A model generated the notes under the pieces. The model saw nothing but the letters and a program-made list of their open reading frames with translations. It ran no database searches and was not told where the DNA came from. A stretch of 64,000 bases of DNA from an uncultured Pseudomonadota bacterium. Lineage in GTDB: Bacteria; Myxococcota_A; Polyangia; Fen-1088. This document shows positions 7,246 to 26,663 of this stretch, one piece after another. Where the stretch lies: assembly GCA_963847705.1 (NCBI GenBank), contig CAWKBC010000041.1, positions 1 through 64,000 on the forward strand, read 5' to 3'. The stretch's first letter is position 1. Each line of letters opens with the position of its first letter. The position numbers were made by a program, and so were the translations under genes.

Positions 7246-7593
7246 GTGAACGTTCAGCTGTTCGGGACCAAGAAGTGCGCGGAGACGCGCAAGGCCGAGC
7301 GTTGGTTCAAGGAGCGCCGGGTCACGTTGCACGTCGTCGACCTCGCGCAAAAAGGGATGGCGCCCGGCGAGCTGCGCAACGTCGCCGCGCGCGCCGGCGG
7401 CTGGGAGGCGCTGATCGATCGCGGCGGGAAGCGCTACCTCGACAAGGGCCTCAAGTACGCCGCGCCGACCGGGCCGCGCATCGAGCAGGCGCTGGTCGAC
7501 GATCCGCTGCTGCTCCGCACGCCGATCGTCCGCTCGGAAGGGCGCGCGACCGTGGGGTACGTGCCGGAGATCTGGGAGACCTGGCTTGGGTGA
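7246..7593 (+). CDS. ArsC/Spx/MgsR family protein
   Basis: QLFGTKKCAETRKAERWF and PLLLRTPIVR..ATVGY. Confidence 0.85.
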   Translation: MNVQLFGTKKCAETRKAERWFKERRVTLHVVDLAQKGMAPGELRNVAARAGGWEALIDRGGKRYLDKGLKYAAPTGPRIEQALVDDPLLLRTPIVRSEGRATVGYVPEIWETWLG

Positions 7594-7853: not shown

Positions 7854-8927
7854 CTATGCCGGTGGTCGTGGCTTTTCGTTGAGAGCATCGACGAACAGGC
7901 TGTCGGCGAGGCCAGCCAGGCCCGGGGTCCAGCGGGCGAGATGGCAGAGTACCTGTGAGGCTCTGACGACGGTGGCCGACAGAGGCTCCAGCAGGTCGAT
8001 GTCGCTGGGCTGAGCGTTCAGCGAAAGGAAGCCGTCGGGAGAGAGCGAGGTCGGGCCGACGAGCGCCGAGAACAGGCGTCGCATCTCTCCCGGTGTCCAG
8101 GCCCGCACGCGGAAACCGTACGGCGGCCGGTGCACGCGACGGAGCGAGTCGCGGGCGCGCTCCAGCAGTGCCGTCGTCTGATTGTAGAGTTGTCGAGCGC
8201 CGAGAACGTTCGCCAGTTGCACGCGAACCTTCCCTCCAGGACGGGTCACGCGGGACATCTCGCGGACGATCTCCGTGACGACGGCCTTGTCCAGATGCTG
8301 CAAGACGGAGTAGGAAAACGTCACGTCGATGCTGTCCGTGTCGAAGGGAAGGTGGCGGGCATCGGCCACCACATAGGCGACCTCGAGCCCCAGCTGCCGA
8401 GCGACGCGTCTTCCGGCAAGAGCTGCGGTCAGCGAGGGGTCGACGGCGACTGCCTTGAACCCCGCCCGACTGGCAGCGAGCGCCCAGCGGCCCCAGTTGG
8501 AACCGACGTCCAAGAGGACGTCGCCCGACCTGGGGAGAAGGCGAATCTCGGGAATCGGATAGCGAAGCAGTGGTCGCCGGTAGTGGCGGTAGAGCTGGCC
8601 ACAGGTCGCCGTCAGCCAGCGCTCGACGAAGGGATCGACGAAGGGATCGACGACGGGATCGACGACGGGATCGACGACGGGATCGACGACGGGACTCCCC
8701 GCGGCGGCGGCGGTCACCTGTTCTCGATGAGCTGCGACATCCTGGGTGGTGGTCCACCACGTGTGGTGGGTCCGAGGCCGATCCTCGCGCAGGAGAACCG
8801 GCACGCCCGCCACGAGGGGGAAGGAGTGCCGGGCAGGGCAATCCAAGGTCTGGTCTCTGGTGGCGAGACGAAGACCGTCGTAGGGACAGGTCAGGTGCCG
8901 GTCGAGCCAGGGTTCGATCCAGCTCAC
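7854..8927 (-). CDS. Trm112-like N-terminus fused to class I SAM-dependent methyltransferase
   Basis: LTCPYDG..CPARHSFPLVAGVPVLL (Trm112-like); LLDVGSNWGRW, ADARHLPFDTDSIDVTFSYSVLQH, RVTRPGG; GTG 8927 start is tentative (ORF open to 9002). Confidence 0.8.
   Translation of the reverse strand: MSWIEPWLDRHLTCPYDGLRLATRDQTLDCPARHSFPLVAGVPVLLREDRPRTHHTWWTTTQDVAAHREQVTAAAAGSPVVDPVVDPVVDPVVDPFVDPFVERWLTATCGQLYRHYRRPLLRYPIPEIRLLPRSGDVLLDVGSNWGRWALAASRAGFKAVAVDPSLTAALAGRRVARQLGLEVAYVVADARHLPFDTDSIDVTFSYSVLQHLDKAVVTEIVREMSRVTRPGGKVRVQLANVLGARQLYNQTTALLERARDSLRRVHRPPYGFRVRAWTPGEMRRLFSALVGPTSLSPDGFLSLNAQPSDIDLLEPLSATVVRASQVLCHLARWTPGLAGLADSLFVDALNEKPRPPA
8623..8694. repeat. 12-bp tandem repeat x6 (TCGACGAMGGGA) encoding PVVD/PFVD units in the methyltransferase
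   Basis: Directly visible; frame-preserving. Confidence 0.9.
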
Positions 8928-8958
8928 GAGGCTTCTGGCCCCCAGCAAGGGCCCGATC

Positions 8959-9264
8959 TCAACGGACCGGATCCGGCACTGACGCCACCAGGCCCTGACC
9001 ACTCAGCTCGGCAAGCAGCCCTCCAATGTCCCGTGTCAGGACCGCCGCATCGACCTCGTACTTCCCGCGCAGCTCTTCCACCAGCTCGGTCAGCATCAGA
9101 GGGCGGACCAACAGGCGAAAGACATCAGCACCGACTTGGTTCACTCTCCACGTGGTGCCCGTAGCCAGGTCCACCAGGAGCAATCCACCCTGGGACGTGT
9201 TCCTCGAGACCACGTTCGGGCAAACTCGGTAGCGAACCCCCGCAGCCACCTCCGGACTATACAA
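8959..9264 (-). CDS. PqqD-family RiPP recognition element (RRE, lasso B1-like)
   Basis: LLLVDLATGTTWRVNQVGADVFRLL..ELVEELRGKYEVD..DIGGLLAELSGQGLV; start uncertain (TTG 9264 or GTG 9249). Confidence 0.85.
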   Translation of the reverse strand: MYSPEVAAGVRYRVCPNVVSRNTSQGGLLLVDLATGTTWRVNQVGADVFRLLVRPLMLTELVEELRGKYEVDAAVLTRDIGGLLAELSGQGLVASVPDPVR

Positions 9265-9281: not shown

Positions 9282-10412
9282 ATGTACAAGCTCGACCACT
9301 ATCTCGGCATGATGCGCGATCGCCGCCGGATCGAGGCCCACGCTGAGGCCGTGCGGCGCGTGGTCAAACCTGGCGACGTGGTGCTCGACCTCGGGGCGGG
9401 GACCGGGGTGCTCTCCTTCATGGCCGTGCGCGCGGGCGCCGGACGGGTCTACGCCGTCGACCCCCATCCGATCATCGAGATCGCCCAGGAGGTCGCCGCC
9501 GCCAACGGGTTGGCGGAGCGCATCGCCTTCATTCAGGCCGACGCCCAGACCGTCGAGCCACCGGAACAGGTCGACTGCCTGATCGGCGACGTGCGCGGCG
9601 CCCTGCCGATCCTGGGCGACAATCTCGACCTCTGGGAGCGGGTGCGCCGCCGATGGTTGCGTCCAGAGGGGAAGACCATTCCGGTGAGCGACGACATGTT
9701 CGTTGCCGTGGTCGCCGCGCCGAAAGCACACGCGCGCGTCGTCGACTGGGGCGAGCCACGCCCTGAGGCCCACTACGACGTCGTTCGTCAGTTCGCCTCG
9801 GACATGACGTCATCCGCGAGATTCGATCCGGGAGAGGTCGTCTCGGCGGCGCAGAAATTCTGCTCTGTCCGCTACACGCAGGAGAACCCGAGAAAGTTCC
9901 AGCGCGAGCTTCGATTCGAGGTGAACGGCGACGTCACCATCACCGGATTGGCCGCCTGGTTCTCGGCGACGCTCGCAGAGGGTGTCTGGTTCGACACCTC
10001 GCCCGGGTCGGGGACCATGATCTACGGCCAGGCGTTCTTTCCATTGAGCAGACCGAGGCCCGCGCGCAAGGGCGAGGTCATCGTGGTCGATCTGGCGGCA
10101 CATCGGATATCGTCCAATACAATCTGGAACTGGCGCATCGGAGCAGAGACCGACCCCCGCTGGGAAGAGAGCCACTCCACGTTCCGAGGCGAAGCCTTGG
10201 GCCTCAACCGTCTGTCATTGATGGAGGGGACCCGATCTCCCGCATTGTCGACCGAGGGTGTCCTGGTCCGCCAGATTCTGAACGCCGTCGACGGTGAGAC
10301 GTCGGCGCGAGCGATCGCCGAAGCCATCGCCGCCGCTGGAGCGAACAGCCTCTCGTCCGTGGACGAGGCGCTCTCTCAGGTGATCCGGGTGATGGGGCTG
10401 TACGCAAAGTGA
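9282..10412 (+). CDS. PRMT-like class I SAM methyltransferase with C-terminal helical extension
   Basis: HYLGMMRDRRRIEAHAEAV, VVLDLGAGTGVLSF, VYAVD, PEQVDCLIGD, LRPEGKTIP, TGLAAWFSATL (PRMT beta-barrel-like). Confidence 0.82.
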   Translation: MYKLDHYLGMMRDRRRIEAHAEAVRRVVKPGDVVLDLGAGTGVLSFMAVRAGAGRVYAVDPHPIIEIAQEVAAANGLAERIAFIQADAQTVEPPEQVDCLIGDVRGALPILGDNLDLWERVRRRWLRPEGKTIPVSDDMFVAVVAAPKAHARVVDWGEPRPEAHYDVVRQFASDMTSSARFDPGEVVSAAQKFCSVRYTQENPRKFQRELRFEVNGDVTITGLAAWFSATLAEGVWFDTSPGSGTMIYGQAFFPLSRPRPARKGEVIVVDLAAHRISSNTIWNWRIGAETDPRWEESHSTFRGEALGLNRLSLMEGTRSPALSTEGVLVRQILNAVDGETSARAIAEAIAAAGANSLSSVDEALSQVIRVMGLYAK

Positions 10413-10465: not shown

Positions 10466-12013
10466 GTGAGTCTCAAGACTCGGCGCGTCCTCCTGATGGT
10501 CGCGATGGGAGCGATCGTCTTCGAGCCCTTCCTGTTCGCCGGATCGTTCGCTGGTGACGCCGAGGTTCATCTCGTCTTTGCCGAGAGCGCCTCCCACGGG
10601 AGGTTCTTCGAGTTCAACCCGGGAGAGCGCGTCTCCGGCGAGACGAGCCCAGGCTACATGTTGCTGGGCGCGGCTCTGTTCCACGTGATGCCCGCCCACT
10701 GGGTCCCTGTCGCGTTGAAGTTGCTCGGACTCGGGGCGTGGTACCTGCTCTGCTGGCTGGTCTACCGCGTCGCCACGAGCATCTTCGCTGCCGACGGCGA
10801 GGAACGCCGCGCCTGGCCAGCGGTCGCCGCGGTGACGGCCGCGCTCATTCCCGGGTCCGTCTACAACGCAAACGTCGGGATGGAAAATGGTCTGTTCGCG
10901 GCGGTTGTTTGGTGGTGGATCGAGCTCGCCGATCGATGGAGCTGGTTCCGCCCCGCGGAGCCTCGGGCGGAGGAAGGGCCGCTCGGCCGAGAGCTCGCGC
11001 TGGCCACCTTGCTGGGCGTCTCGTGCTGGCTGCGCCCCGAGGGATTCGTGCTCGCCGGTGCGGCCCACGCCTCTCGATATTGGACGGCGCGGCCTCGAGC
11101 GCGGCGCTGGCTGGCCGGACTGTCCCTGGTCGTCGTCATCGGGCTGGCGAGCGTCGTCTTCCAGTTCGCCTGCACCGGTGACTGGGTCGCGACCTCCATC
11201 CTCTCCCGCCGTGTTCTGACGATGTCGAGATCTCTGTCCCTGGGGCCGCTGGCCATCGACCCCACGTTTGCGGGGCGCCTGCTCCTCTATTTCCCTTTGA
11301 CGGCCTGCTTCGTCTGGGGTGTTTGCCGACGGCAGAGCCCTGGTTCCGAGCTGGAGAAGTTCCTTCTGACGTTGCTGGCCCTCTTCTTCGTTTTCTACAC
11401 GTGCGTCACCGGTTCCGCCCAGCTCAGCCGCTACGTGATCTTCTTGATGCCAATCTTCGCCATCGGCGCGGCGCACGGTGCGCGTGCTCTTTGGGAGAGC
11501 GGAGAGCGCAACCAGCGGCAGCTGCTGGCAGTCGCGGCCCTGGTATTCGGCGTCACCAATGTCGCCGAGCTCTGGTACCGTCGAGGGCACTACTCACAGG
11601 ATCTCCTCAGCAGCGCCATGACAGCCCCTCGAGAGCGCCGGGCGCAGACTGATGCTCTCCTGAACGAGCTGGACCAACCATCGAAGCGCCCCGTCGTTCT
11701 GGCGTTGGAGGCCGTTCAGGCCCGATACGAGCTGGACGGCCGGATCACGATTCGGTCGCTCGACGGGCGCGTCGACCGCGCCCTGCTGGCGTTCGTTCAC
11801 GCCGGCGCAATCGACCATATCGGATATCTCAAGGCGCGCGGCGTGGACTACCTTTTCAAGCCGCCGTCATACAATCGGGATCTCTCGGTCTGGTCCCTCT
11901 CGGACCTGGCCACCCTCAAACCTGGCGAAGCCGTCCGTCGTGACGGGCTGCGGTTGCGGCGTCTCACCTCGGCGGCCTTCGCCGTCGAGACAGCAGATTC
12001 GCCGGCCCGCTGA
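10466..12013 (+). CDS. Polytopic membrane protein, probable GT-C fold glycosyltransferase (ArnT/PMT-like)
   Basis: Many hydrophobic segments; GDAEVH, FNPGERVSGETSPGY, GMENGLF, LRPEGFVL, RYVIFLMP motifs. Confidence 0.6.
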   Translation: MSLKTRRVLLMVAMGAIVFEPFLFAGSFAGDAEVHLVFAESASHGRFFEFNPGERVSGETSPGYMLLGAALFHVMPAHWVPVALKLLGLGAWYLLCWLVYRVATSIFAADGEERRAWPAVAAVTAALIPGSVYNANVGMENGLFAAVVWWWIELADRWSWFRPAEPRAEEGPLGRELALATLLGVSCWLRPEGFVLAGAAHASRYWTARPRARRWLAGLSLVVVIGLASVVFQFACTGDWVATSILSRRVLTMSRSLSLGPLAIDPTFAGRLLLYFPLTACFVWGVCRRQSPGSELEKFLLTLLALFFVFYTCVTGSAQLSRYVIFLMPIFAIGAAHGARALWESGERNQRQLLAVAALVFGVTNVAELWYRRGHYSQDLLSSAMTAPRERRAQTDALLNELDQPSKRPVVLALEAVQARYELDGRITIRSLDGRVDRALLAFVHAGAIDHIGYLKARGVDYLFKPPSYNRDLSVWSLSDLATLKPGEAVRRDGLRLRRLTSAAFAVETADSPAR

Positions 12014-12044: not shown

Positions 12045-12053
12045 GTCTGTTCC

Positions 12054-12335
12054 ATGAAGGATGATCCCCGAGCCCCGCTGGCCCCTCCGGCGGTCGTCAT
12101 GCAGCCCACCGAGAGCGGTGCGGTTCTGATGGACCCGGTGACGGGCGACTGCTTCGAGCTCAACCGACTCGGCGCCGAGATTTGGAGCCTCCTGGCAGCA
12201 GGTGATTCGTCCTCGCAGATCGCGACCAAGCTGGCCCTCAGATATGAGGTCCCCGAGATGACGGTCGCGGCCGACGTGCAGACCCTGGTCGCCGATCTGG
12301 CGCGACATGGTCTCCTCGACCTTCGGGACCGATGA
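12054..12335 (+). CDS. PqqD-family RRE protein
   Basis: AVLMDPVTGDCFELNRLGAEIWSLL..IATKLALRYEV..ADVQTLVADLARHGLL. Confidence 0.9.
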   Translation: MKDDPRAPLAPPAVVMQPTESGAVLMDPVTGDCFELNRLGAEIWSLLAAGDSSSQIATKLALRYEVPEMTVAADVQTLVADLARHGLLDLRDR

Positions 12336-13318
12336 CCAGAATCGCGCATCACGCGCTGCTGAAGTTCGACGCCGCAGCCCTGCTACTGGATCTGCGATCG
12401 GGCGGTCTTTTCCAGCTGAACGAATCGGCGACCTTCGTCTGGGAACACTGGCTGGGGGAGATGACCACCGGGGAGATCGCATCGGCGCTCGCCCAGACTT
12501 ACAGACTCCCCCTCGAGACCGCCGGTGAGCACGTCGCGGCGGCGCTGGCGAGCAAGGCGATCGCGGCTCCGCCACCCACCGAGTTCGTCTACGAGCGTTG
12601 GGCGAACCGGTACCTGTTTTCCCGCGGGGCCGAGTCGATTCTGACCGTCGACGATCGGGGCGGCGCGATCGCGCTCGCCGAATCCTCGCCGATCGCGGTC
12701 GATGACCTCCGCAACGTGTTGCTGGCGATCTCGCCCAAGCTCCTGGCGCTGCGCGGTCACTGCGTGCTGCACGCCTCCGCGGTGCTGCTGGGGAGCGAGG
12801 TCTTGGCATTCTGTGGCGAGAGCGGCGCGGGAAAGACGACGACCGCGCGAGCGCTGGCGCAGGCAGGCGCCAGCCTCGTTTGCGAAGACAAGCTGGTGAT
12901 CCAGAGGCGAGGCGATTGCGTCGAAGCGGTGACCGGCATCGAGGCGATGCTGTTGCGCTGGTCGCAGGCGGCGGCAGAGACCCTGCTGACTGGCACGGCG
13001 GCCCCTTGCCCCGATCTCGATCACTCGGACGGCCGCCAGCCTCTTGCCCTGCGCGAGATCGGGTTCATCGATGCGACGCGCCGCAAGGGTGGAGAGATCG
13101 CGGCCGTCCCGCTGACCCCGCTGGCAGGCGCTGCCGGTGTCTTTCGTAACACCTTCTACGGCTCCGACGTCTCAGGCGACTGGGCGCGACAGCTCCACCT
13201 GGCCGGGGAGATCGCCCACCGAGTCGCCACCTACGAGCTCACGATGCCGGCCGGGACGGAGCGGCTGCCGGCGGCGGCGGCGAATCTGGCGCGGCGGGGA
13301 TCGCTCAGATCGCGATGA
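12332..13318 (+). CDS. RRE (PqqD) domain fused to HPr-kinase-like P-loop kinase
   Basis: N-terminal LLLDLRSGGLFQLNESATFVWE..IASALAQTY; then VLHASAV..FCGESGAGKTTTA..LVCEDKLVI; ATGA overlap with the upstream RRE gene. Confidence 0.82.
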   Translation: MTRIAHHALLKFDAAALLLDLRSGGLFQLNESATFVWEHWLGEMTTGEIASALAQTYRLPLETAGEHVAAALASKAIAAPPPTEFVYERWANRYLFSRGAESILTVDDRGGAIALAESSPIAVDDLRNVLLAISPKLLALRGHCVLHASAVLLGSEVLAFCGESGAGKTTTARALAQAGASLVCEDKLVIQRRGDCVEAVTGIEAMLLRWSQAAAETLLTGTAAPCPDLDHSDGRQPLALREIGFIDATRRKGGEIAAVPLTPLAGAAGVFRNTFYGSDVSGDWARQLHLAGEIAHRVATYELTMPAGTERLPAAAANLARRGSLRSR

Positions 13319-13691
13319 CTGCGTCGTAGCGCTCGGTCGCCGGATCGGACTCCAGCCAGGCGTGGCCGGACCCCGGTCGGCCGCCCAGCTGCAGACCGGC
13401 GAAGAACCGCTCGCGCGCAGCGCCTCCGTCGAGCGCAATCTCGATCAGCGCCCGCCGCACGCAGTTCTGGCCGCCCGGCAACCGCCGGTCGACCGCGCCA
13501 ATCAGCCGCTTCAGTCGTCTGCGCGCAGCCGGAGAGCGTGCCCCGCGCGCGACACCGCCGCACCGGGCCACGGCCACCGCCCGATGGAGGCTCAGCTCCC
13601 GTCTCCATCGATCGACCAGGGGGATGAGCCGTACCACCCCCCAAAGATCCCGGGCCAGCCCGGGAGCGCCTCTCAAACCAGACGAGGACAT
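13305..13691 (-). CDS. Lasso peptide leader peptidase B2 (transglutaminase-like)
   Basis: NCVRRAL (catalytic Cys) and GHAWLE (catalytic His); directly downstream of the precursor. Confidence 0.85.
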   Translation of the reverse strand: MSSSGLRGAPGLARDLWGVVRLIPLVDRWRRELSLHRAVAVARCGGVARGARSPAARRRLKRLIGAVDRRLPGGQNCVRRALIEIALDGGAARERFFAGLQLGGRPGSGHAWLESDPATERYDAVIAI

Positions 13692-13716: not shown

Positions 13717-13905
13717 TCAGCCAGCTTGGTTCGGTTTGATCGTCGGATTCGCGTCCGGAGAGGTCCCGGTGCTGCCGGCGAGCAGATCTCTCGCGTTCCC
13801 CACCAGAGTCAACGTCGGCGCTTCATATCGCGAAACGGGCGAACCCACACGCTCGCCCATCGAACCTGCCGGGACTTCGCCATTTCCACTCTTGGGATCG
13901 CTCAT
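13717..13905 (-). CDS. Lasso peptide precursor, 62 aa; predicted core GSTGTSPDANPTIKPNQAG
   Basis: Leader YEAPTLTLVGNARDLLA matches YxxPxLxxxG; Gly1 and Asp8; GGAG upstream of ATG; sits between cyclase and B2. Confidence 0.88.
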   Translation of the reverse strand: MSDPKSGNGEVPAGSMGERVGSPVSRYEAPTLTLVGNARDLLAGSTGTSPDANPTIKPNQAG

Positions 13906-13909
13906 CTGG

Positions 13910-15787
13910 TCAGCTCCGGCCACTATTGTAATTGAAAACCCCGCGAAGCCAAGCCTCAAGACCGCCAAGCGCCAGGACCGTGGAGAGGCTCTGTGCCGGG
14001 AGTGTGGCGCCACCATTCAGCGCGGTCTCGAACATTGCGCGCGCGATCCCGCGATCCACGAATGGGGAGCTCACCCACGCACCCGTCCGAAAGAAAGGAG
14101 CCAGGCTCGGAACGGTGCGTCGCGCCGTGGCCTTCCAGACGTCGGTCCACGGTTTCTGGCCCCTGCGACCCGCGAACTCGGGCGGAAGGAGCGGACCGAG
14201 GGCGTCCCGTCCGGTGCGTCGGTGATGCCCCCGCGGATCCCGTTGCGCCCAGGGGAGGGCCATGACGCATTCGATCAGTCGAACGTCCGCGTGCGGCAGG
14301 CGAACCTCGAGACCGTCCTCGCTTCCGTAGTCGGTCATCCCTTCGATCTGCGCTCCCGTGCGGGGGCGTGTGAGCCGCGCCCAGAGATCCGCCAGCAGGT
14401 GTGAGGACCAATCGACCGAGGGGAGCTCGAGCAGCTCCGCTGAAGGGGGATAGATCTCTCGCAGGCGAGGGCCCATCCACTCGGGAGGGGGCGCGAAACC
14501 ACCCTCGAGCCGATGCGCGATCGTTGGGGCCAGGGCCGGATTGAGGATGCCGAGCCCCCAGTCGATGGTGTGTCGAAGCGCCGAGAAGCCGAGCCCCGCG
14601 CGACGCACGTGGCGAAGCACGATGTCCAGCCGCGCACGGCGGACGAAGTCGCGCAGGACGCCTCCGGCGTACCAGACCTCGTCTCCCATGAACCCCGAGA
14701 CGAGGACGCGGGCGCCCTTCTGCCGTGCAATCTCCAGATCACGCCGAGGGCCCCCGGCCAACCCGATCCGGACAGTGGGCGCACCCCGGAAGACACCAGG
14801 GAACGACGAGGAGGTCTCCTCGATGATGTTCCAGCGAAGCCCTTCGAACGAGACACGCGACGCGACCGCGTCCATGTAGTTCGACTCGTCGCAGGCGAAC
14901 CCAGGCGCCAAGGCCGAGACCATGATCAGCGGCGCGCGGCCGGGTTCGGATCGGTAGACCTCCTCTGCGGCCATGAGGATGGTGCTCGAATCGAAGCCGC
15001 CACTCGAATGGGCCACGATCGGATGGTCGGACTCGAGTCGATCGCGCACCGCTCTCCGAAACACACTCCGCAGGCGTTCACAGTTCTCGTCGTACGACAG
15101 AGAGGTATCGGGCGTCGCCGGCGGCATCCAGTACCGACTCTCCACCACCTCACGCGCGGTCGCGATCAAACGGTGGCCTGGCCGAAGGCGAACGAAACCT
15201 CGAAAGAGTGTCCGTCTTGGATCGGACACATGCTCGCTCAGCAGATCCAGAATCTGAGGGGCGGCGAGCTCGTCCAGCGGATCGTTCAGCAGCGGCATGA
15301 GCTGATGCAGCCGAGAGGCCACGACGATCCCCTCGGACGCCTTTCGAAAGAACAGGGGTCTCGTCCCCAGATGGTCCCGTGCGGCGAACAGGATTCGCCG
15401 ATCGTCGTCCCAGGCCGCGAAGGCAAAGTCGCCGACCAGATGGCGTGGACTCTCCGGGCCCCAGCGCAGGTAGGCCTGCCTTGCCAGCTCGAGATCCGCG
15501 CACTCTCCTTGTGACGCGGCTATCCCCAGCTCGGCGAGCAGCTCGGGACGGTTGTAAAGACGCACGTCGCCGCAGAACAAGAGCCCGCGGGCGGCATCCC
15601 AGGAGGGCGCCGCCTGCTCATCGCGCCGGACCACGGCCCATCGGCTCAGACCGGCGGCGCCGTGAGGCGACTCGGCGAACCTGGTGCCCTCGGACGGATC
15701 CAGTGGAGGCGCCTCGAAAAGGCGCCGGGCAGTTGCCCTCACCGGCGGGCCGTCGACGAAAGCTGCCGCTAGTCCAAAGACAAACAC
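13910..15787 (-). CDS. Lasso cyclase (asparagine synthetase-like C protein)
   Basis: RLYNRPEL, GDFAFAAWD, ARDHLGTRPLF, HSSGGFDSS, SGFMGDE, EVRLPHADVRL; no N-terminal catalytic Cys. Confidence 0.88.
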   Translation of the reverse strand: MFVFGLAAAFVDGPPVRATARRLFEAPPLDPSEGTRFAESPHGAAGLSRWAVVRRDEQAAPSWDAARGLLFCGDVRLYNRPELLAELGIAASQGECADLELARQAYLRWGPESPRHLVGDFAFAAWDDDRRILFAARDHLGTRPLFFRKASEGIVVASRLHQLMPLLNDPLDELAAPQILDLLSEHVSDPRRTLFRGFVRLRPGHRLIATAREVVESRYWMPPATPDTSLSYDENCERLRSVFRRAVRDRLESDHPIVAHSSGGFDSSTILMAAEEVYRSEPGRAPLIMVSALAPGFACDESNYMDAVASRVSFEGLRWNIIEETSSSFPGVFRGAPTVRIGLAGGPRRDLEIARQKGARVLVSGFMGDEVWYAGGVLRDFVRRARLDIVLRHVRRAGLGFSALRHTIDWGLGILNPALAPTIAHRLEGGFAPPPEWMGPRLREIYPPSAELLELPSVDWSSHLLADLWARLTRPRTGAQIEGMTDYGSEDGLEVRLPHADVRLIECVMALPWAQRDPRGHHRRTGRDALGPLLPPEFAGRRGQKPWTDVWKATARRTVPSLAPFFRTGAWVSSPFVDRGIARAMFETALNGGATLPAQSLSTVLALGGLEAWLRGVFNYNSGRS

Positions 15788-15844: not shown

Positions 15845-17872
15845 TCAGTAGAATACGACGACTCGCCCCACCTTGCCGGGCGCAAACTCGCCGATGGCGA
15901 AGTCGGCGTATCCATCCTCGTTGGAGTCGACAATGAGGCTCATCCCTCCGTAGCCCTCCCAGTTGCCCGGGAAGTGATTCGGGGCCTTGACGATCGAGGG
16001 GACCACAGCGGCTTGAGCGGCCGCCACGTCTACGATTCCCGACATCGAGGCGAGGGCGTTCCCGTTCACGATGTAGATCGGCGTGCCCGTTTCGGACTGT
16101 CCGGCCACCACGAGATCCGGAACCGTGTCGCCTCCGATGAACGAGACACCTTGCGAAGTCCCTTTGACGCCTCCGCCAAGATTCACGACGCCGAACGAGT
16201 TGCCCGCCGTGGTGTCCTCCAACCGTACGGTGGGAGCCGGCGCGCTTCCGGATGCGCCCAGGAGCGGTCCCATCGACGCAGTACCCAAGTTGACGTCCAC
16301 GAACGGCGGAGTTGCGGAGGTCGCAGCGACCGATACGGCGCCCGGACCTCCGATCGACCCCAGGAATCCAAGATCGAATCCGTAGAAGTCGGCGGCGGTC
16401 GTGACCGTCGAGTCGTTCGCCCCGCTCGCGGTCAACACACCCGTCGGGGCCTGTCCCGCGAACGCGTAGATTGCGCTCGCGCCGGGCGCCGACGTGACCA
16501 GCGAGGCCCCGGCCGGGCTGGGGAAGAACTGGCCGATGCCGATGGTCGTCAGGCCCAAGAACCCGCCCGCGACCGTCCCGTCGACTTCGATGGTCCCGGC
16601 GCCGGGGATCGTCCCTGACGCAAACGCGCTGCTGCCCTTCACGATGAGGAGACTCCCGGCGTTCGTCTTGGCCAGGGCGAAGCCAATCGCCAGATCGTCG
16701 GACCCGCTTCCGTCGAAGTTCCCGAGCCGCGCCATTCCCGCCGGCTGGATCGACCCCACTCCGCCGGCAAACGTCCCGTCGGCGGTCAGAATGTAGTTCG
16801 CCTGCGTGTCTGTCAGCGTCGCGGGCCAGCTGTTCGTCGTTCCCCAGGAGGAGGGCGGGTTCTTGCGGCTGAAGATGTAGATCTTCCCGCCGCCGCCGTC
16901 GTTCGGCGACGCGATCGCGATATCGGCAAGCCCGTCTCCATCCAGGTCACCCGCGTTGACGACGGCCTGGCCAAAGTCAGCGACCGTCCCCGTGATCGTG
17001 ATCGAAGGTGTCGAGGCATATCCAGCCGCGGTGCCGAAGTAGATGTAGGCATGATTGCCGCCGTCAGCGCCGACAATCAGATCGGAGAACCCGTCCGCCG
17101 TGAAGCTCAGGCTTCCCGCCGTTCCGAAGTCCCCGGAGCCGTCGAGATCCTGCCCGATTCCGTCGGTGCCGGTTCCAGAGAGCGTGGTCGTCAAGAACTG
17201 CGCCTCGACGGCGACGGCGGTGGCCATGATGGTCCCACGCGTCCCGGAGCCGTCCTTGCCCACGATGGCAAAGTAGTAGCCCTGCTCGATGTTGAGGTTC
17301 TTGACGACCATTCCATCGAGCTTGCCAGGCGCCGCGGGCACGCCCGTGTATGCGACCGTCAAGGTCACGGTGGTGTCGTCGAAATTGGCGGTCGTGATGG
17401 GAACCTTGGCCACCCGAATGTCGTAGCCGGCGACCGTCCCGCCCGTGCCGGTCGCCGGTGCGGGCCAGGTGAGGCTGAAGGAGGTTTGACGCCGATCCAG
17501 AACGACGGCGGTCAGTTCGAGAGGAACCGCCGCGTCGGTGCCGCCGTCGGTTTCGGATTTCCCAGCGCCGCCGCCCTGACCGCCGGTTCCACTGCCCGCG
17601 CTCCCCGCAGGACCACCGGAGGCGCCGCCCGCGCTGCCCGCAAGACCACCGGCGCCGCCGCCCGCGCTGCCCGCAAGACCGCCGGCGCCGCCGCCCGCGT
17701 TGCCCGCAAGACCGCCGGCGCCGCTGCCCGCGCTGCCCGCATGACCGCCGGAGCCCGTGCCTGCGCTTCCTGCATGACCGCCGGAGCCCCCGTTACCAGA
17801 CCCACCGCCGCATCCGCCAACGACGAGAATCCCTACCAGCGAGAGAAATCGAAACTGCGACGACCTTCCCAT
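15845..17872 (-). CDS. Lipoprotein with Gly-rich linker, FN3-like domain and FG-GAP (integrin-alpha-like) repeats
   Basis: Lipobox LVVGGC; GGSAG repeats; LTWPAP..GYDIRVAK; DFGQAVVNAGDLDGDGLADIAI, NFDGSGSDDLAIG, DSNEDGYADFAIG. Confidence 0.8.
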   Translation of the reverse strand: MGRSSQFRFLSLVGILVVGGCGGGSGNGGSGGHAGSAGTGSGGHAGSAGSGAGGLAGNAGGGAGGLAGSAGGGAGGLAGSAGGASGGPAGSAGSGTGGQGGGAGKSETDGGTDAAVPLELTAVVLDRRQTSFSLTWPAPATGTGGTVAGYDIRVAKVPITTANFDDTTVTLTVAYTGVPAAPGKLDGMVVKNLNIEQGYYFAIVGKDGSGTRGTIMATAVAVEAQFLTTTLSGTGTDGIGQDLDGSGDFGTAGSLSFTADGFSDLIVGADGGNHAYIYFGTAAGYASTPSITITGTVADFGQAVVNAGDLDGDGLADIAIASPNDGGGGKIYIFSRKNPPSSWGTTNSWPATLTDTQANYILTADGTFAGGVGSIQPAGMARLGNFDGSGSDDLAIGFALAKTNAGSLLIVKGSSAFASGTIPGAGTIEVDGTVAGGFLGLTTIGIGQFFPSPAGASLVTSAPGASAIYAFAGQAPTGVLTASGANDSTVTTAADFYGFDLGFLGSIGGPGAVSVAATSATPPFVDVNLGTASMGPLLGASGSAPAPTVRLEDTTAGNSFGVVNLGGGVKGTSQGVSFIGGDTVPDLVVAGQSETGTPIYIVNGNALASMSGIVDVAAAQAAVVPSIVKAPNHFPGNWEGYGGMSLIVDSNEDGYADFAIGEFAPGKVGRVVVFY

Positions 17873-17935
17873 GAGCGCACCCCCCTTGGCCGACGGTTGT
17901 TCGTTGCACCTTCGACAAGTCGTCGTTTATCACCT

Positions 17936-20900
17936 TTAGTAAAAGACGACCACCCTTCCGACCTGGCCAGGTGCGAACTCGCCCACCGCGAAGTCGGGTT
18001 GTCCGTCGCCGTTCGAGTCAGAAATCAGCCCCGCTCCACCGTAGCCGCGCCAATCGGACGGGATCTGCCCCGTGACCTTGATTACGGTCGGCACCAGGCC
18101 CAGCTGCAGTTGCGCGCCCGAGACATCGACGTTCCCCGAGAGTGAGGGCATCGCCGCGCCGTTCACGATGTAGACCGGAGCTCCAGTCTCGGACTGACCA
18201 CCGACGACGAGATCGGGTGCCGCGTCGCCGCCAACGAGCGACAACGTCTGGGAGGTCCCTTTGACGCCGCTCCCCAGGTTCACGACTCCGAAGGAGTTTC
18301 CAGCCTGCGCATCGCTCAACCGGAAGGAGGCGGCGGGAGCGCCGCCGGCCACGCCCAGCAGAGGTCCAGTCGCGGCGGTCCCGAAATGGACGTCGACGTA
18401 GGCAGGCGCCGCGTACGGTGCCCCGATCGTCACCGCGCCAACAGAGCCGCCGACCGACCCCAGGTAACCCAGGTCGAACCCGTAGAAGTCCGCGGCCGGC
18501 GCAACCACCGAGTCGTTGGCCCCCGCGGCGGTCAGGACACCGGATGGCGACTGCCCCGCGAATGCATAGATCGCGCTCGCACCAGCGGCCGCCGTCACGA
18601 GTCCCGGTCCATTTGGTGACGGGAAGAACTGCCCGATTCCCACGGTGGCGAGACCGAAGAACCCGCCCGCGGCCGTCCCGTCGATCTCTATCGTTCCCGC
18701 TCCCGGGATCGTCTGCGAAGCGAAGCTCGAGCCCCCCTTCACGACGAGCAGGCTCCCCTTCAATCCGTTGTCGAGAGCGAACCCGATCGCCAGATCGTCC
18801 GAGCCCGTCCCGTCGAAGTTGCCGAGCCGCGCCATCCCCGCTGCCTGAATCGAGCTGATGCCCCCGGCGAAGGTCGGATCAGCCGTCAATACGTAGTTCG
18901 CCTGGGTGTCCGACAACGTTGCTGGCCAGCTGTTGGTCGTCCCCCAAGAGGCGGGCGGATTCTTGCGGCTGAAGATGTAGATCTTTCCGCCGCCGCCGTC
19001 GTTGGGCGAGGCGATCGCGATGTCCGCCAGACCATCACCGTCGAGATCTCCGGCATTCACGACCGCCTGCCCGAAGTCCGCCACCGATCCGGTGATCGTA
19101 ATCGAGGGCGTCGCCGAGTAGCCGGCCGCGGTCCCGAAGTAGACGTAGACGTGAGTTCCATTGTCGGCACCGACGATGAGGTCGGAGAATCCGTCAGCCG
19201 CAAAGCCCAGACCGTTCGCGGTTCCGAAATCACCGGAGCCGTCCAGGTCCTGCCCCACCCCGTCCGTCCCGACGCCGGTCAGGACCGTGGTCAGGAAGTG
19301 CGCAGTCGTCGCGGAGGCCGTCGTCACCATCGCGCTGGTGGTCCCCGCGACATTGCTCGCCTCGACCGCGAAGTAGTACCCGTTCTCGATGTAGAGGCTG
19401 CTGACGTTGATGCCATCGAGCTGGCCCACGTTCGCCGGCGTTCCACTGTAGGGAACCGCGACCGTAACGGTGCTGTCATTGAAGTTGCTGGCGGTGATCG
19501 GCACCTTCGCATACCGGACCTGGTAGCCGGCGACGTTCCCGCCATTGCCATCGCTGGGCGCCGTCCAGGTCAGCTGCATCGTGGTCTGCCGCCGCAGGTT
19601 TGGTGGGATTGATACATTCAATCCCGCCGGCGCGTTCGGTGTCGCGGTATCCACCGTCACCGTCACGGTCCCACTCCCCACGCCCGCGCCCGGCACGTTG
19701 TCCGTCGTGGCGAGGATCGTCTGGGTCCCCTCGGGGATGGTGACGCTGTTGAGCTGCGCGTGGCCGGTCGCGTCCGTCAGGGCGCTGCCGAACGTCGTGG
19801 CGCCGTCACTGAAGGTGATCTGGCTGCCGTTCACCGGCGCGCCGCTGGCCGTCACGGTGACCGCCAGGCTCCCTTGCCAACCGGGCGTGCTCGGGTCGGT
19901 GTCGGCGATGCAGCCGGGGGTGGTCGAACCGTTCGGGCACAGCAACGCGCCCGCGGTCGGCGTCGTGAACGTCACCACCGGGGCGGTCCCGACGGTCACG
20001 GTGCAGGTGGCCAGCACGGTCGCGTTGCCGGCCGGATCGCTTTCGGTCGCGACCAGCGCGTTCTGGCCCTCGGCGAAGGCGACGCTGCCGAAGGTGGCGA
20101 CACCGCCGACGTAGGCCGGCGTGTCGTAGGTGGTGGTGACACCGTTGTTGGTCACGTCGGCGACGACCAGCTTGTCGTCGGCGGTGTAGGCGACGTCCTC
20201 GGTGACGGTGGTCGCCGACTGCGTGAAGCTGCCGCACAGGCCCGCGGGCGAAACCAACGCCAGGCTCGGCACCACCGTGTCGACCCAGACGTCGTCGGGC
20301 TGGCTGGTGCCGGTGTCGGCGCTGTTGGTGGCCGAGGTGATGGAGACCTGCAACTCCGTCGCGGTGGCCAGCGTGCCGTCGGCGTTCTCATTGCTCTCGG
20401 GCAGCGTCACGCCCACGAAGTGGGCCACGAAGCCGGACCCGTTCGGGCAGTTGTCGCCGGCGGCGGCGGCGGTGGTGAGGATCGCGCTCCCCAGCTGGAC
20501 CAGGCTGCTGTCGCCCTTGTGGCCGACGAACAGCGTGGCCGTCCCGGCGGTGTCGGTGCAGGCGACGACGTCGGCCTGAGCGCCCGGCGTGCTGGCGTCC
20601 TCGTCGAGGACTCCGGCGGGGGCGTTGGCCGCCAAGATGTGCTTGGTGGGATCGGTGAACGTGGGCGCGTCGGACGCGGGCCTGACAATCTGAACCCCCG
20701 GCAACGACGAGGCGCAGGTGACGCCCGTGATCGTCTGGGTCGTCGGGTTGCCAGCGGCGTCGTTCAGCGTGAAGGTCAGGCTGAACGGTGCGGCGCCCGG
20801 GCAGGCCAGGCTGACGCAGGTCGAGGTGTTGACGGCAGAGACCGCGACGCAGGAGGGTGTGGCCGACGAGCCGAGGGTGACGCAGAGGTTGTTCCGGCCG

Positions 20901-22111
20901 CTGCCGAGCGAGCCCGCCAGGCTGGCGGCGTCGCTCGAGCTCGTCTGGGCGCAGGCGTTGACCGTTCCGCCGACGACGAACTGGCCCGCGGTGGGGCTGT
21001 TCACGGCCAGGGCGGGCGGAGTGGTGTCGACGGTGAAGCTGCTCTTCGTCGAGGTTCCGGTGATCCCCTCTTTGTTGAGGCAAGTCGCGATCACTTCGTA
21101 CGTGCCGTCGGGAACCAGGGTCAGCCCGAAGCTGGCGCTGCCGCCCGAGACGATGGCGCTGGGCGTGCCGTCGACGGGCGTGCCCGGCGCGGCGGCGTTG
21201 TCGACCGCCAGCGTGACGGTCTGGCCGTCCTCGGCGCTGGTGCTGACCACGAAGGTCGCCTGGTAAGGCGAGCTGCTGGAGCTCGAACGATCGCCCTGCG
21301 GCGTGGGGACGCCGTTCAGATCCGGGTGCGTCGCGCTGATCACCGGCGCGCTGATCGTGCAGGTGGGCGGGCTGTCCGGGCAGCTCACCGTCACGTTTTC
21401 CGTGACACTGCAGGCCGCCGTGCTCGGGTACTGGATCGACAGCTGCTGAGCCGTGCTGCTGGTCGCGAGCTGAACCGCGAAGGACGCCGTGCCGCCGCTG
21501 ACCTTGACGGTCTTGAGCAGCGAGGTGCCGTCATAAAGGGTCACGTCGGTCCCGTCCGGCGCGCCGGAGGTGATGGTGACCGTGTATTGGAATCCGTCGG
21601 CGCAGGTCTGGTCGCTGTCGTCGGCGACGGTCAGGAGCGCACCTGATGTCGGCGCCGTGAACGCGGTCGTGTAGCAGGCCGTCGCGCCGCCGGTGCCACC
21701 ACCCGCGCCACCGGTGCCGCCACCTACGCCGCCCGTGGCGCCGCCCACCCCACCCGTTCCAACGAGGCCCCCCGTTCCGCCGCCCTTGCCGCCGACGCCG
21801 CCGGTGCCGCCACCGACGCCGCCCGTCGCGCCGCCCACCCCGCCCTTGCCGCCGGCGCCGCCGCCGACGCCGCCCGTGGCGCCGCCGACACCGCCCGCGC
21901 CGCCGTCCGTTGGGCTGCCCGCAACGCCGCCGCTTCCACCGTCGATGGTGCCGCCTGCTCCGCTCCCTCCCCCGCTCCCGCCGACTCCGATGGAGCCACC
22001 GGTTCCCGTCTGCGCGGGGGCGTTGTCACCACACCCGACGGTGAGCCCGACAACGGCGAGCAACGGAAGCGAAAACGAGAACGAAGCTAAACGAGCGCGG
22101 ATGTACCCCAT
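17936..22111 (-). CDS. Large surface lipoprotein: Gly-rich stalk, Ig-like repeats, FN3-like domain, FG-GAP repeats
   Basis: Lipobox LTVGC; TVDTTPP and DAAGN Ig-like motifs; C-terminal region closely paralogous to 15845..17872. Confidence 0.82.
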   Translation of the reverse strand: MGYIRARLASFSFSLPLLAVVGLTVGCGDNAPAQTGTGGSIGVGGSGGGSGAGGTIDGGSGGVAGSPTDGGAGGVGGATGGVGGGAGGKGGVGGATGGVGGGTGGVGGKGGGTGGLVGTGGVGGATGGVGGGTGGAGGGTGGATACYTTAFTAPTSGALLTVADDSDQTCADGFQYTVTITSGAPDGTDVTLYDGTSLLKTVKVSGGTASFAVQLATSSTAQQLSIQYPSTAACSVTENVTVSCPDSPPTCTISAPVISATHPDLNGVPTPQGDRSSSSSSPYQATFVVSTSAEDGQTVTLAVDNAAAPGTPVDGTPSAIVSGGSASFGLTLVPDGTYEVIATCLNKEGITGTSTKSSFTVDTTPPALAVNSPTAGQFVVGGTVNACAQTSSSDAASLAGSLGSGRNNLCVTLGSSATPSCVAVSAVNTSTCVSLACPGAAPFSLTFTLNDAAGNPTTQTITGVTCASSLPGVQIVRPASDAPTFTDPTKHILAANAPAGVLDEDASTPGAQADVVACTDTAGTATLFVGHKGDSSLVQLGSAILTTAAAAGDNCPNGSGFVAHFVGVTLPESNENADGTLATATELQVSITSATNSADTGTSQPDDVWVDTVVPSLALVSPAGLCGSFTQSATTVTEDVAYTADDKLVVADVTNNGVTTTYDTPAYVGGVATFGSVAFAEGQNALVATESDPAGNATVLATCTVTVGTAPVVTFTTPTAGALLCPNGSTTPGCIADTDPSTPGWQGSLAVTVTASGAPVNGSQITFSDGATTFGSALTDATGHAQLNSVTIPEGTQTILATTDNVPGAGVGSGTVTVTVDTATPNAPAGLNVSIPPNLRRQTTMQLTWTAPSDGNGGNVAGYQVRYAKVPITASNFNDSTVTVAVPYSGTPANVGQLDGINVSSLYIENGYYFAVEASNVAGTTSAMVTTASATTAHFLTTVLTGVGTDGVGQDLDGSGDFGTANGLGFAADGFSDLIVGADNGTHVYVYFGTAAGYSATPSITITGSVADFGQAVVNAGDLDGDGLADIAIASPNDGGGGKIYIFSRKNPPASWGTTNSWPATLSDTQANYVLTADPTFAGGISSIQAAGMARLGNFDGTGSDDLAIGFALDNGLKGSLLVVKGGSSFASQTIPGAGTIEIDGTAAGGFFGLATVGIGQFFPSPNGPGLVTAAAGASAIYAFAGQSPSGVLTAAGANDSVVAPAADFYGFDLGYLGSVGGSVGAVTIGAPYAAPAYVDVHFGTAATGPLLGVAGGAPAASFRLSDAQAGNSFGVVNLGSGVKGTSQTLSLVGGDAAPDLVVGGQSETGAPVYIVNGAAMPSLSGNVDVSGAQLQLGLVPTVIKVTGQIPSDWRGYGGAGLISDSNGDGQPDFAVGEFAPGQVGRVVVFY

Positions 22112-22233: not shown

Positions 22234-23229
22234 ATGACCACCACAGCTCTGCCTCGGCTCGACGGGAACCTGGGCGGGTCGCGGGCGCCGGCAGAGCTGT
22301 TGTCGGCGCTAGAGGCGAACATCGCCCGGGTGCTGCGCGGCAAGCCCGGCGTGATCCGTCACGCGGTGATCGCGCTCTGCGCGCGGGGCCATCTGCTGAT
22401 CGAGGACGTGCCCGGCGTGGGGAAGACCACCTTGGCCCGCGCGCTGGCCCGCTCGATCGGCGGGACGTTCCACCGGATCCAGTTCACCAGCGACCTCCTG
22501 CCGTCCGATGTGCTGGGCGTTTCGGTCCTCGATCCCAAGACCAGCGAGTTCGAGTTCAAGCCGGGGCCGGTGTTCGCGAACCTCGTCCTGGCCGACGAGA
22601 TCAACCGAACGCCGCCGCGCACGCAGAGCGCGCTCCTCGAGGCGATGAACGATGGACAGGTGTCGGTCGACGGGCGCTCGTTCCCGCTGGAGGCGCCGTT
22701 CCTGGTGATGGCGACGCAGAACTCCGAGGAGCACTACGGGACCTACCCGCTCCCCGAGTCGCAGATGGATCGCTTCCTCTTGCGGCTGCGGATCGACTAC
22801 CCCGCGCCCGAGGACGAGCGGCGCATCCTGCTCGAATCGCCGGGGCGACCCGACGAGGATCTGGCCCGGCTCCAGGCCGTCTTGAGCGTGGCCGAGGTTC
22901 GGCGGCTGCAGGATGCCGCCGAGCGGGTGCACTTCTCGCCCGAGCTCGCCGACTATGTCGTCGCGGTGGCGCGGGAGACGCGGCGCTCGCCGCACCTCAC
23001 GGTCGGTGTCTCGCCGCGCGGCGCGCTGGCCTGGCGGAACGCCGCGCGGGCTGCAGCGCTGGCCGAGGGGCGCGACTACGTCCTCCCCGACGATCTGAAG
23101 TCGCTGGCGGCGCCGGTGCTGGCGCACCGGGTGATCCCGGCGTCACCCGTCGAGGCGGTGGCGCGGTCGCGGCAGGACGTCGAGCGGGTGCTCGCCGAAA
23201 TCCTCGATCGCCTCCCGGCCCCGGGGTAG
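22234..23229 (+). CDS. moxR: MoxR-family AAA+ ATPase
   Basis: [64 protein letters not shown]. Confidence 0.95.
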
Positions 23230-23235
23230 CCCCAC

Positions 23236-24288
23236 ATGAGAATGATGCGCCGCCGATTCCCTCCCACCCGCGAGGGGTGGTGGTTCCTGCTGGCGACGCT
23301 GTTCGTCGGCGCGGTGGCGATCGACGCGGGGATCAACCTCTTCTTTCTGACCTTCGGGATGATGGCCTGCCTCCTGGCGGCGAACTGGCTGATGTCGACG
23401 CTGGGGCTCGGCGGGCTGCGCGTGCGCCGGATCCTGCCGCCGGTGATTCACGCCGGCACGCCCTACCTCATGGGAATCGCGCTCGAGAACCGGAAGCGCC
23501 GGTTGCCGTCGTTCTCGATCGAGGTCGAGGATCTCGTCGAGGGACGCCCGATCGACAAGCGCTGCTACTTCTTGAAGCTCCCGGCCGGGCGCTCGCAAGA
23601 GACGTCTTACCGGCACACGATCAGCCGCCGCGGGCGCCACAAGCTGTCGGGATTCCGGCTGGCCACCAAGTTCCCGTTCGGGCTCATGGCCCGCGCGCGC
23701 GAGGTGAAGGACGCGGCGGAGATGGTGGTCTACCCGGCGCTGGCCGTGCTGCCGCCGGCCCTCCTGCGAGGGCTGCCGTCGCCGCCGGCGCCCGCGCGCC
23801 AGCAGGGGCCGAGCCGGCACGGCGAGCTGGCGGGGCTGCGCGCGTTTCGCCCAGGTGACGATCCGCGCGGCATCCACTGGCGGACCAGCGCGCGGCGCGG
23901 AATGTTGTTGGTGCGCGAGCACGAGGACGACGAGGGGCAGGAGGCGACGATCGTCTTCGACAACGACGCGCGGTCGGGGGCCGAGGCCTTCGAGCTGGCG
24001 GTCTCGCGCACGGCGGCGCTGTGCGTGGAGCTGGCGCGGCGCGGGCTGGCGGTGGGGCTCGTCACCCGCGGGTGCGAGGTCCCCCCCTCCGCCGGTCCGG
24101 GACATCTGGCGCACCTCCTGCGGCTGCTCGCCTTCATCGCGCCCGAGGCGCGCCCGCTGCCTCGCCTGCGCCGCCGCGCGGTCGCCCGCGTCTCGCCCGA
24201 GGGGGAGCTTCACCTGGGCCACCTCGATCGCGCGGCATCGGGAGGAGACGGAGACGCGCCCGCGGTCCCGGTTCTCACCACCGCATGA
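23236..24288 (+). CDS. DUF58 domain protein
   Basis: PTREGW, RRGRH..KFPFGL..VVYP, LRAFRPGDDPRGIHWRTSAR, VREHE. Confidence 0.9.
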   Translation: MRMMRRRFPPTREGWWFLLATLFVGAVAIDAGINLFFLTFGMMACLLAANWLMSTLGLGGLRVRRILPPVIHAGTPYLMGIALENRKRRLPSFSIEVEDLVEGRPIDKRCYFLKLPAGRSQETSYRHTISRRGRHKLSGFRLATKFPFGLMARAREVKDAAEMVVYPALAVLPPALLRGLPSPPAPARQQGPSRHGELAGLRAFRPGDDPRGIHWRTSARRGMLLVREHEDDEGQEATIVFDNDARSGAEAFELAVSRTAALCVELARRGLAVGLVTRGCEVPPSAGPGHLAHLLRLLAFIAPEARPLPRLRRRAVARVSPEGELHLGHLDRAASGGDGDAPAVPVLTTA

Positions 24289-26522: not shown

Positions 26523-26615
26523 CGGTCCCCCTGACAAAATGGCAGAGTCCCTGGCAAGCCCCCGCCAGACCGGCACCAATGCCCACCCCAGCCCACCTAT
26601 CCTGCGACCTTCGCA

Positions 26616-26631
26616 GGGCATCTTCCTTGCA
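26616..26631 (+). promoter_or_regulatory. Putative sigma-54 (-24/-12) promoter
   Basis: GGGCATCTTCCTTGCA fits GG-N10-GC, 32 nt before ATG 26664. Confidence 0.55.
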
Positions 26632-26663
26632 CTGCGCCTGCTGGGCCGGGAAAGGGAACTGCC

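Follow-up and report, generated by a model that had tools for sequence, protein, structure and literature searches.

The window, a 64,000-nucleotide stretch of contig CAWKBC010000041.1 from an uncultured member of the Polyangia, contains a lasso peptide cluster built around a short leftward gene (Table 1) whose 62-residue translation (13717-13905, minus strand) ends in YEAPTLTLVGNARDLLA-GSTGTSPDANPTIKPNQAG. The leader has Y-17, P-14, L-12 and G-8 at canonical positions, and counting from these places Leu at -2 and Asp at core position 8. The predicted core has Thr at position 3, Lys14 as its sole basic residue, a C-terminal Gly and no Cys, and so does not have the two-Cys core of classes III and IV; the 11 residues C-terminal to Asp8 lack Phe, Trp, Tyr, His and Arg, which agrees with the original prediction of a tail without an aromatic or Arg residue. 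Ile13 and Lys14 are candidate plugs. The calculated mass of the cyclic core is 1793.854 Da, or 1873.821 Da with HPO3 added; for the released 19-mer before cyclisation it is 1811.865 Da.

Table 1. Coordinates of the precursor, its elements and the neighbouring genes in the window.
Feature	Coordinates	Strand	Basis
Lasso precursor A, 62 aa (43-aa leader + 19-aa predicted core)	13717..13905	-	Translation, leader model, 34-locus alignment
Conserved leader segment Y(-17)...A(-1), YxxPxLxxxGNxxDLLA	13777..13827	-	Alignment
Leu(-2) codon, replacing the usual Thr	13780..13782	-	Codon position, family comparison
Predicted core GSTGTSPDANPTIKPNQAG	13720..13776	-	Predicted Gly1-Asp8 ring; Asp invariant in alignment
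Predicted acceptor Asp8 codon	13753-13755	-	
GGAG ribosome-binding site	13914..13917	-	Within cyclase 3' end, 8 nt upstream of precursor ATG
Lasso cyclase C, asparagine-synthetase-like; SGGFDS at 262, GFMGDE at 365; no N-terminal Cys	13910..15787	-	NF033535 best, E 1e-63, under its cut-off
Leader peptidase B2, Cys-His-Asp candidates; clade motifs C-V-R-R, G-H-A-W	13305..13691	-	PF13471 at its cut-off
RRE-fused HPr-kinase-like peptide kinase, convergent with B2	12332..13318	+	Domain matches
Stand-alone RRE (B1, PqqD-like); Cys at TfuB1/FusE Tyr33 position	12051..12335	+	Domain matches, alignment
Membrane glycosyltransferase-like protein (accessory)	10466..12013	+	Domain match; in 5/33 other clade loci
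PRMT-like methyltransferase (accessory)	9282..10412	+	E 1e-22 to PRMT6
Second stand-alone RRE (accessory)	8959..9264	-	Domain matches
Class I SAM methyltransferase, N-terminal Zn-ribbon-like segment (accessory)	7854..9002	-	Domain match
FG-GAP/Fn3 predicted lipoprotein, directly upstream of cyclase; C-terminal domain models as integrin-alpha-like beta-propeller	15845..17872	-	
Longer paralogous FG-GAP/Ig predicted lipoprotein; propeller region 75% identical	17936..22111	-	

The cluster has a cyclase, a transglutaminase-like B2, an RRE, a YxxPxL...G leader and an Asp/Glu acceptor at core positions 7-9, while the typical lasso Thr(-2) is Leu in the window. The cyclase, B2 and leader each score below their own NCBIfam lasso cut-offs (for the leader, NF033521 gives a weak match of 17.1 bits against a cut-off of 19). 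In the cyclase the ATP motif is present and the glutaminase Cys1 is absent. Translation of B2 presumably begins at ATG 13691, judging from its 128-aa homologues, and nothing else in the genome matches the B2 family; across 34 aligned rows the Cys and His of B2 are invariant and its Asp is kept in at least 90%, a candidate triad by sequence. A B2 structure model (pLDDT 93.8) gave no match at E <= 0.001 against PDB structures. The kinase keeps the His/P-loop motif, with ED where BsfK has DD. No ABC exporter was found among the 12 window proteins scanned, and among 61 scanned of the 177 called neighbouring proteins there was one ABC transporter. In the class I SAM methyltransferase gene a short tandem repeat at 8570-8700 encodes (PVVD)n/(PFVD)n.

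On one side of the cluster, in the window as in several relatives, lie genes for a MoxR-like ATPase, a DUF58-like protein and a transglutaminase-like protein (22234-28711; assigned in the window from translation and the Pfam matches of relatives), and on the other side an ArsC-family gene (7246-7593). These recurrent flanks suggest a fixed chromosomal site.

Several observations indicate that the precursor is a genuine gene. On the minus strand the GGAG (13917-13914) is followed by the cyclase TGA (13912-13910) and then by the precursor ATG (13905), so that the cyclase stop codon lies between the ribosome-binding site and the start codon as noted originally. In the 27 loci that were scored, the first Met lies from -40 to +43 nt relative to the cyclase stop, a conserved tight spacing that fits translational coupling. 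A genome-wide scan with a loose leader pattern returned 35 matches, only one of which, the window ORF, adjoins a cyclase and B2, and the ORF is therefore more than a chance match. Precursor orthologues lie immediately after the cyclase in 30 other loci. Among 34 leaders the majority base has a mean frequency of 0.84 at the second codon position and 0.51 at the third, and four different codons encode Leu(-2); both features fit a translated gene under selection at the protein level.

Cyclase searches matched 35 of 89 genomes in the window's family (E <= 1e-30) and 49 of 401 in its class (1e-25). We define the clade as the window plus 33 fetched loci whose B2 has the motif C-x-R-R-x-L, 31 in the window's family and three from two other families of the same class; one further locus, L110, passed the motif filter by chance and was left out. 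Precursors in these 34 cyclase-anchored loci were located with a pattern that included neither the -2 residue nor the Asp, and the invariance of the leader Tyr, Pro and Gly in all 34 rows reflects in part that the same residues served as the search pattern. The -2 residue is Leu in 29, Val in five, and Thr or Ile in none, in keeping with the Leu first called in the window. The core Asp is present in 34/34, at position 8 in 27, position 9 in four and position 7 in three. The precursor alignment proposed as a check for an LL[AG]-G..D pattern thus returned Leu/Val(-2) with Asp at 7-9 in every locus and Gly1 in 26/34.

A profile search of a protein database recovered 38 proteins, among them 27 newly parsed precursors (one row unparsed), of which 25 have Leu and two Val at -2, all with Asp at 7-9, a set biased towards the Leu query. 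A quick tree built from 52 cyclases groups all 31 Leu/Val rows within one 33-row clade (SH-aLRT 99) with no Thr rows inside it; L060, L078, L095 and L097 are left out of this tree, having short or frameshifted cyclases. The clade cyclases are merely 26-55% identical, yet Leu(-2) is conserved. B2 has at least 259 homologues at E <= 1e-10, and a B2 profile gave five matches in a 400-genome sample of the phylum, all in the same class. Two homologous precursors carry the source label 'Polyangia bacterium', from which we take the lineage to be myxobacterial. The window family is a lineage-wide Leu/Val(-2) lasso variant with a real precursor gene.

The cores of the family vary in their cysteines, with none in 17 loci, two in the other 17 (L074, L076-L078, L080, L082, L084-L088, L090-L093, L095, L097), and never one. 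In eight of the two-Cys cores one Cys lies beside the acceptor Asp in the ring and the other near the C-terminus; these are predicted to be class III-like lasso peptides with long tails, and a disulfide has likely been added in half of the family. Other loci depart from the window arrangement. L108 encodes a clade-type B2 fused to an N-terminal methyltransferase (L108:10287-11771), with a precursor divergent from the cyclase, a Lys1-Asp7 core, Leu(-2), an RRE with Tyr and an ABC transporter nearby. In family f7, three genomes carry longer reading frames that finish in a clade-type B2 domain (L138:7253-8575, L139:7137-8012, L140:5206-6063), with no cyclase, RRE or precursor detected in neighbourhoods of ~5-7 kb. 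Beside the RRE-kinase operon, NTP_transf_5 nucleotidyltransferases occur in six clade loci (L079, L081, L083, L084, L094, L096) and DUF218 proteins in four (L075, L084, L094, L097); both belong to the variable accessory content of these clusters. L089 (G003) has the FG-GAP and clade cyclase genes followed by a Cys-type RRE, with neither precursor nor B2 detected; the cluster there appears to be broken or to have been reduced.

Thr(-2) is 94% conserved in lasso leaders (PMC11420955). The S2 pocket predicted for McjB consists of F23, M108, L151 and S181 (PMC11420955), and the RRE contributes to S2 via Tyr33 (PMC10368454, citing others). In BsfA, which has Gly1 and Asp8, Ile(-2) has been validated, and BsfB2 barely cleaves I(-2)L and I(-2)V and leaves I(-2)T and I(-2)A uncleaved (PMC10368454). 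The view of the window leader as non-canonical holds in that it differs from Thr, but it is not unprecedented, given validated Ile and the Ile, Val and Ala predicted elsewhere; natural Leu(-2) is not mentioned in the portions of that report available to us (PMC10368454), and a literature search, partly over incomplete texts, found no paper on a natural Leu(-2) lasso family. Given this poor cleavage of Leu(-2) by an enzyme that accepts Ile(-2), Leu(-2) would need a pocket of its own.

An ungapped alignment of the window RRE with TfuB1 sets a Cys against the Tyr of E-Y-W-Q-L-N. We take this Tyr to be Tyr33 of FusE, a numbering checked by eye against BsfB1 Tyr37. The position is occupied by a residue other than Tyr in 30/31 clade RREs (Cys 19, Ala 4, Thr 4, Val 3) and by Tyr in 34/37 outside, counts that were made partly by eye and leave out L089 as a clade-type locus without a precursor. 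An independent test of RRE against -2 residue drew on 40 Acidobacteriota and Sphingomonadales regions and 17 earlier loci: Thr is present at -2 or -3 in 19/19 non-clade loci with a Tyr-RRE and a located precursor, and in 0/2 with a Cys-RRE and a precursor (L208 and L038), whose registers are uncertain and of which L208 also has a second, Tyr-type RRE. L208 (G740, a Bryobacteraceae record) is an unrelated lasso locus whose precursor lacks Thr near the junction; if its core is Ala1-Asp8, then -2 would be Leu, an independent origin.

Immediately before its catalytic His, B2 has Gly in 34/34 clade loci and 119/120 database homologues, compared with Ala in 20/20 outgroup rows and, among 65 parsed unrelated B2 (from 67 Acidobacteriota/Sphingomonadales loci), Ala in 57, Phe in three, Ser in two, Leu in two and Gly in one. 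The residue after the catalytic Cys is Tyr in 17 clade loci, Val in 10 (the window among them), Phe in five and Leu in two, and outside the clade it is Leu in 17/20. If, as we presume, the McjB catalytic residues are C150 and H182, these two positions are those of L151 and S181. The original prediction of an altered B2 S2 pocket is thus upheld as to changed pocket-mapped residues in B2, but the RRE residue has changed too, and the alteration likely involves the RRE as well as B2.

There are counter-examples on both sides of the pocket. L108 combines an RRE Tyr with Leu(-2), and BsfB1 retains Tyr with Ile(-2) (PMC10368454); in B2, the Gly of L176 accompanies a Thr(-2) precursor, the Val(-2) of L213 goes with Phe at this position, and L208 has Ala, and we reject the Gly before the B2 His as a universal marker of non-Thr leaders. 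With these exceptions, and since the clade reflects a single event whose members are kin and not independent, we treat the pocket change as a testable proposal rather than as demonstrated co-evolution; the residue changes may be passengers of one evolutionary event.

We think it probable that the ORF is a class II lasso precursor of a Polyangia Leu/Val(-2) lineage, predicted to be cut after Leu-Ala by B2 acting with the stand-alone RRE, and that the S2 pocket they share has been widened for leucine; the residue comparisons make such a widening likely. The stand-alone RRE would bind the YxxPxL of the leader, and the RRE-fused kinase would likely phosphorylate a ring Ser/Thr (Thr3 or Thr5) on the uncut precursor, as BsfK does. 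Because the core ends in Gly, a ring Ser/Thr is the likelier kinase target; Ser or Thr occurs within core positions 2-6 in 34/34 loci, at position 5 in 24/34 and at position 3 in 14/34. B2 would then release the 19-mer, and the cyclase, consuming ATP, would close the Gly1-Asp8 ring around the tail. Ordinary side chains, with Ile13 and Lys14 the most plausible candidates, likely keep the thread in place, with heat stability perhaps modest and tailoring probably unneeded as a lock.

An alternative that we consider unlikely is that cleavage and cyclisation proceed as predicted and yet leave the tail without stable threading, giving a branched-cyclic or readily unthreading product. Since most lasso locks are bulky aromatics (PMC13352647), the original concern over the plug is fair as a tendency, and threading could be labile because the window core is one of 7/34 with no aromatic, no Arg and no Cys pair. 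Some relatives (e.g. L081, L083) have very small tail residues, and the Cys pair in 17/34 may compensate for weak plugs. However, the Asp8 ring is small, and the argument from a missing aromatic is weak because non-aromatic plugs are known: 17/20 residue types occur at the upper plug position and 14/20 at the lower, terms that are positional rather than mechanical labels (PMC12214591), and the 8-residue ring of lariatin A is held by His12 and Asn14, the Asn plugging a Glu8 ring (PMC4960549). The 34 tails include nine with Phe, Trp or Tyr, 14 with Arg and 13 with neither, and the absence of aromatics is not unusual and a minor point. In the nearest relative, L068 (cyclase 89% identical, same tailoring genes), the core ends T-I-K-P-T-F-A-G-G, so that Ile13-Lys14-Pro15 is kept while the aromatic differs; Ile-Lys-Pro also recurs in L072 and three database relatives. 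Less probable again is the originally suggested steric lock from methylation or glycosylation of the tail, e.g. at Lys14 or Thr12. The window cluster does encode two methyltransferases, one of them PRMT-like, along with an extra RRE and a glycosyltransferase-like protein, and with Lys14 the only basic core residue its methylation may occur here. Nevertheless, of the 33 other clade loci just five have the glycosyltransferase-like gene and three the PRMT-like gene, methyltransferases are missing from most, and L068 combines an identical tailoring set with a tail Phe, all of which argues that a tailoring lock is not the solution used by the family. The membrane glycosyltransferase would more plausibly modify surface proteins, and in L098 a PRMT homologue stands beside a core without Lys or Arg. 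The kinase, matched in all 33 and by these matches the only conserved tailoring gene of the family, targets a ring residue in bsf (PMC10368454).

We regard as very unlikely a cleavage one residue away, producing either Ala1-Asp9, where P2 would be Leu(-3), or Ser1-Asp7, where P2 would be Ala. An acceptor is retained in 30/34 cores when the register moves by -1 and in 31/34 when it moves by +1 (larger shifts, 3-12), and one-residue register shifts are seen in outgroup precursors; but the canonical register, the Gly1-Asp8 of the original prediction, is the only one with an acceptor in 34/34, has Gly1 in 26, and is the validated register of BsfA (PMC10368454), and under a -1 shift P2 would still be Leu in 29/34. 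It is hardly credible that the cluster is decaying and the odd leader a product of relaxed selection: the cyclases of three relatives (L078, L095, L097) are frameshifted and L089 lacks a detectable precursor and B2, but every window gene is intact with catalytic motifs kept, Leu(-2) persists across divergent cyclases with synonymous codon variation, and the frameshifts may be assembly errors.

The PRMT-like gene of the window lies beside its own RRE though the window core lacks Arg. Relatives of the enzyme are also encoded in unrelated lasso loci (Longimicrobium L039, L055, L056, L059 and L062; L037; L048; L098; L118), and a literature search on PRMT-like methyltransferases in lasso loci found no paper.

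In 27/34 clade loci (the window and 26/33 others) an FG-GAP gene immediately precedes the cyclase, ending at most a few hundred bases from it; the observation covers window 15845-22111, L068-L097 and L120. The domain is found in 34 of the 89 family genomes, 32 with a cyclase of the clade type, one in which the contig ends first and one with none nearby; of the 55 genomes without it, 49 have no cyclase match and three have Thr-type clusters. Within the window's genus (26 genomes) FG-GAP and cyclase are both present in 15 and both absent from 11; across the family, gene and cluster are gained and lost together. The propeller domain model (pLDDT 88) best matches integrin-alpha propellers (TM about 0.57-0.60). 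The gene is absent from five clade loci for which flanking sequence is available (L080, L088, L106-L108), and a role essential for biosynthesis is rejected. The bsf cluster is bordered by an FG-GAP gene, treated there as the border, and the bsf paper was the only one that our literature search found with both 'lasso peptide' and 'FG-GAP' (PMC10368454). Co-inheritance as one island accounts for the link equally well as function does. We raise as a speculative and somewhat doubtful idea that the Leu(-2) peptides and the FG-GAP lipoprotein form one unit, in which the surface propeller would bind the (phospho)lasso peptide as a receptor or display scaffold, serving lasso-based adhesion or kin-signalling with a Leu-specific protease in uncultured myxobacteria. 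The linkage provides a lead on the role of these peptides.

No recognition residue in lasso biosynthesis is more conserved than Thr(-2), and Leu is rejected in the single exception that has been validated; the Leu/Val(-2) lineage suggests a protease of new specificity. A natural Leu-specific RRE/B2 pair, with its many B2 homologues and two candidate pocket residues, makes the S2 model directly testable, and lasso engineering could gain from it an orthogonal leader protease. Aromatic-poor cores occur in the family both with a disulfide and without one, and offer material on the minimal plug for an 8-residue ring.

The closest studied system is bsf of Bradymonas sediminis FA350 (PMC10368454), with which the window shares a split B1/B2, an HPr-kinase-like kinase, a YxxPxL leader with an aliphatic non-Thr(-2) residue, Gly1 and Asp8, a Gly/Ser/Thr-rich core without aromatics, and the FG-GAP gene at the cluster border. 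By eye, from the gene sequence in that paper, BsfB2 also has the Gly before the catalytic His, but has the canonical C-L-Q-R-A where the clade has C-x-R-R. The -2 residue is Ile in bsf and Leu/Val in the window clade, BsfB1 keeps the Tyr that is Cys in the window RRE, and bsf has an ABC transporter and a nucleotidyltransferase, neither of which is in the window cluster, whereas the window kinase carries a fused RRE and its operon is convergent. BsfK phosphorylates Ser3, and a mature lasso from bsf was reported as not detected (PMC10368454). The window family would work like the bsf system but lies outside its Ile type.

The canonical Thr(-2) split systems (fusilassin TfuB1/FusE, TbiB1, microcin J25 McjB) have in common with the window the Y-17/P-14/L-12/G-8 leader spacing, the transglutaminase-like B2 and the asparagine-synthetase-like cyclase, and the window RRE is homologous to TbiB1 and TfuB1; the window differs in the replaced Thr(-2), in Cys for RRE Tyr33, and in Gly before the B2 His and Val after the Cys. 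Clusters for phosphorylated lasso peptides (paeninodin PadeK, ThcoK, pseudomycoidin PsmK) also encode an HPr-kinase-like kinase, and the nucleotidyltransferases of six clade loci add to the resemblance, but these kinases act on a C-terminal Ser and the window core ends in Gly (PMC10368454). Lariatin A resembles the window peptide in its 8-residue ring, non-Arg plugs and Ile-Lys-Pro tail, and differs in its Glu8 acceptor, Thr(-2) leader, actinobacterial origin and aromatics in ring and loop (PMC4960549).
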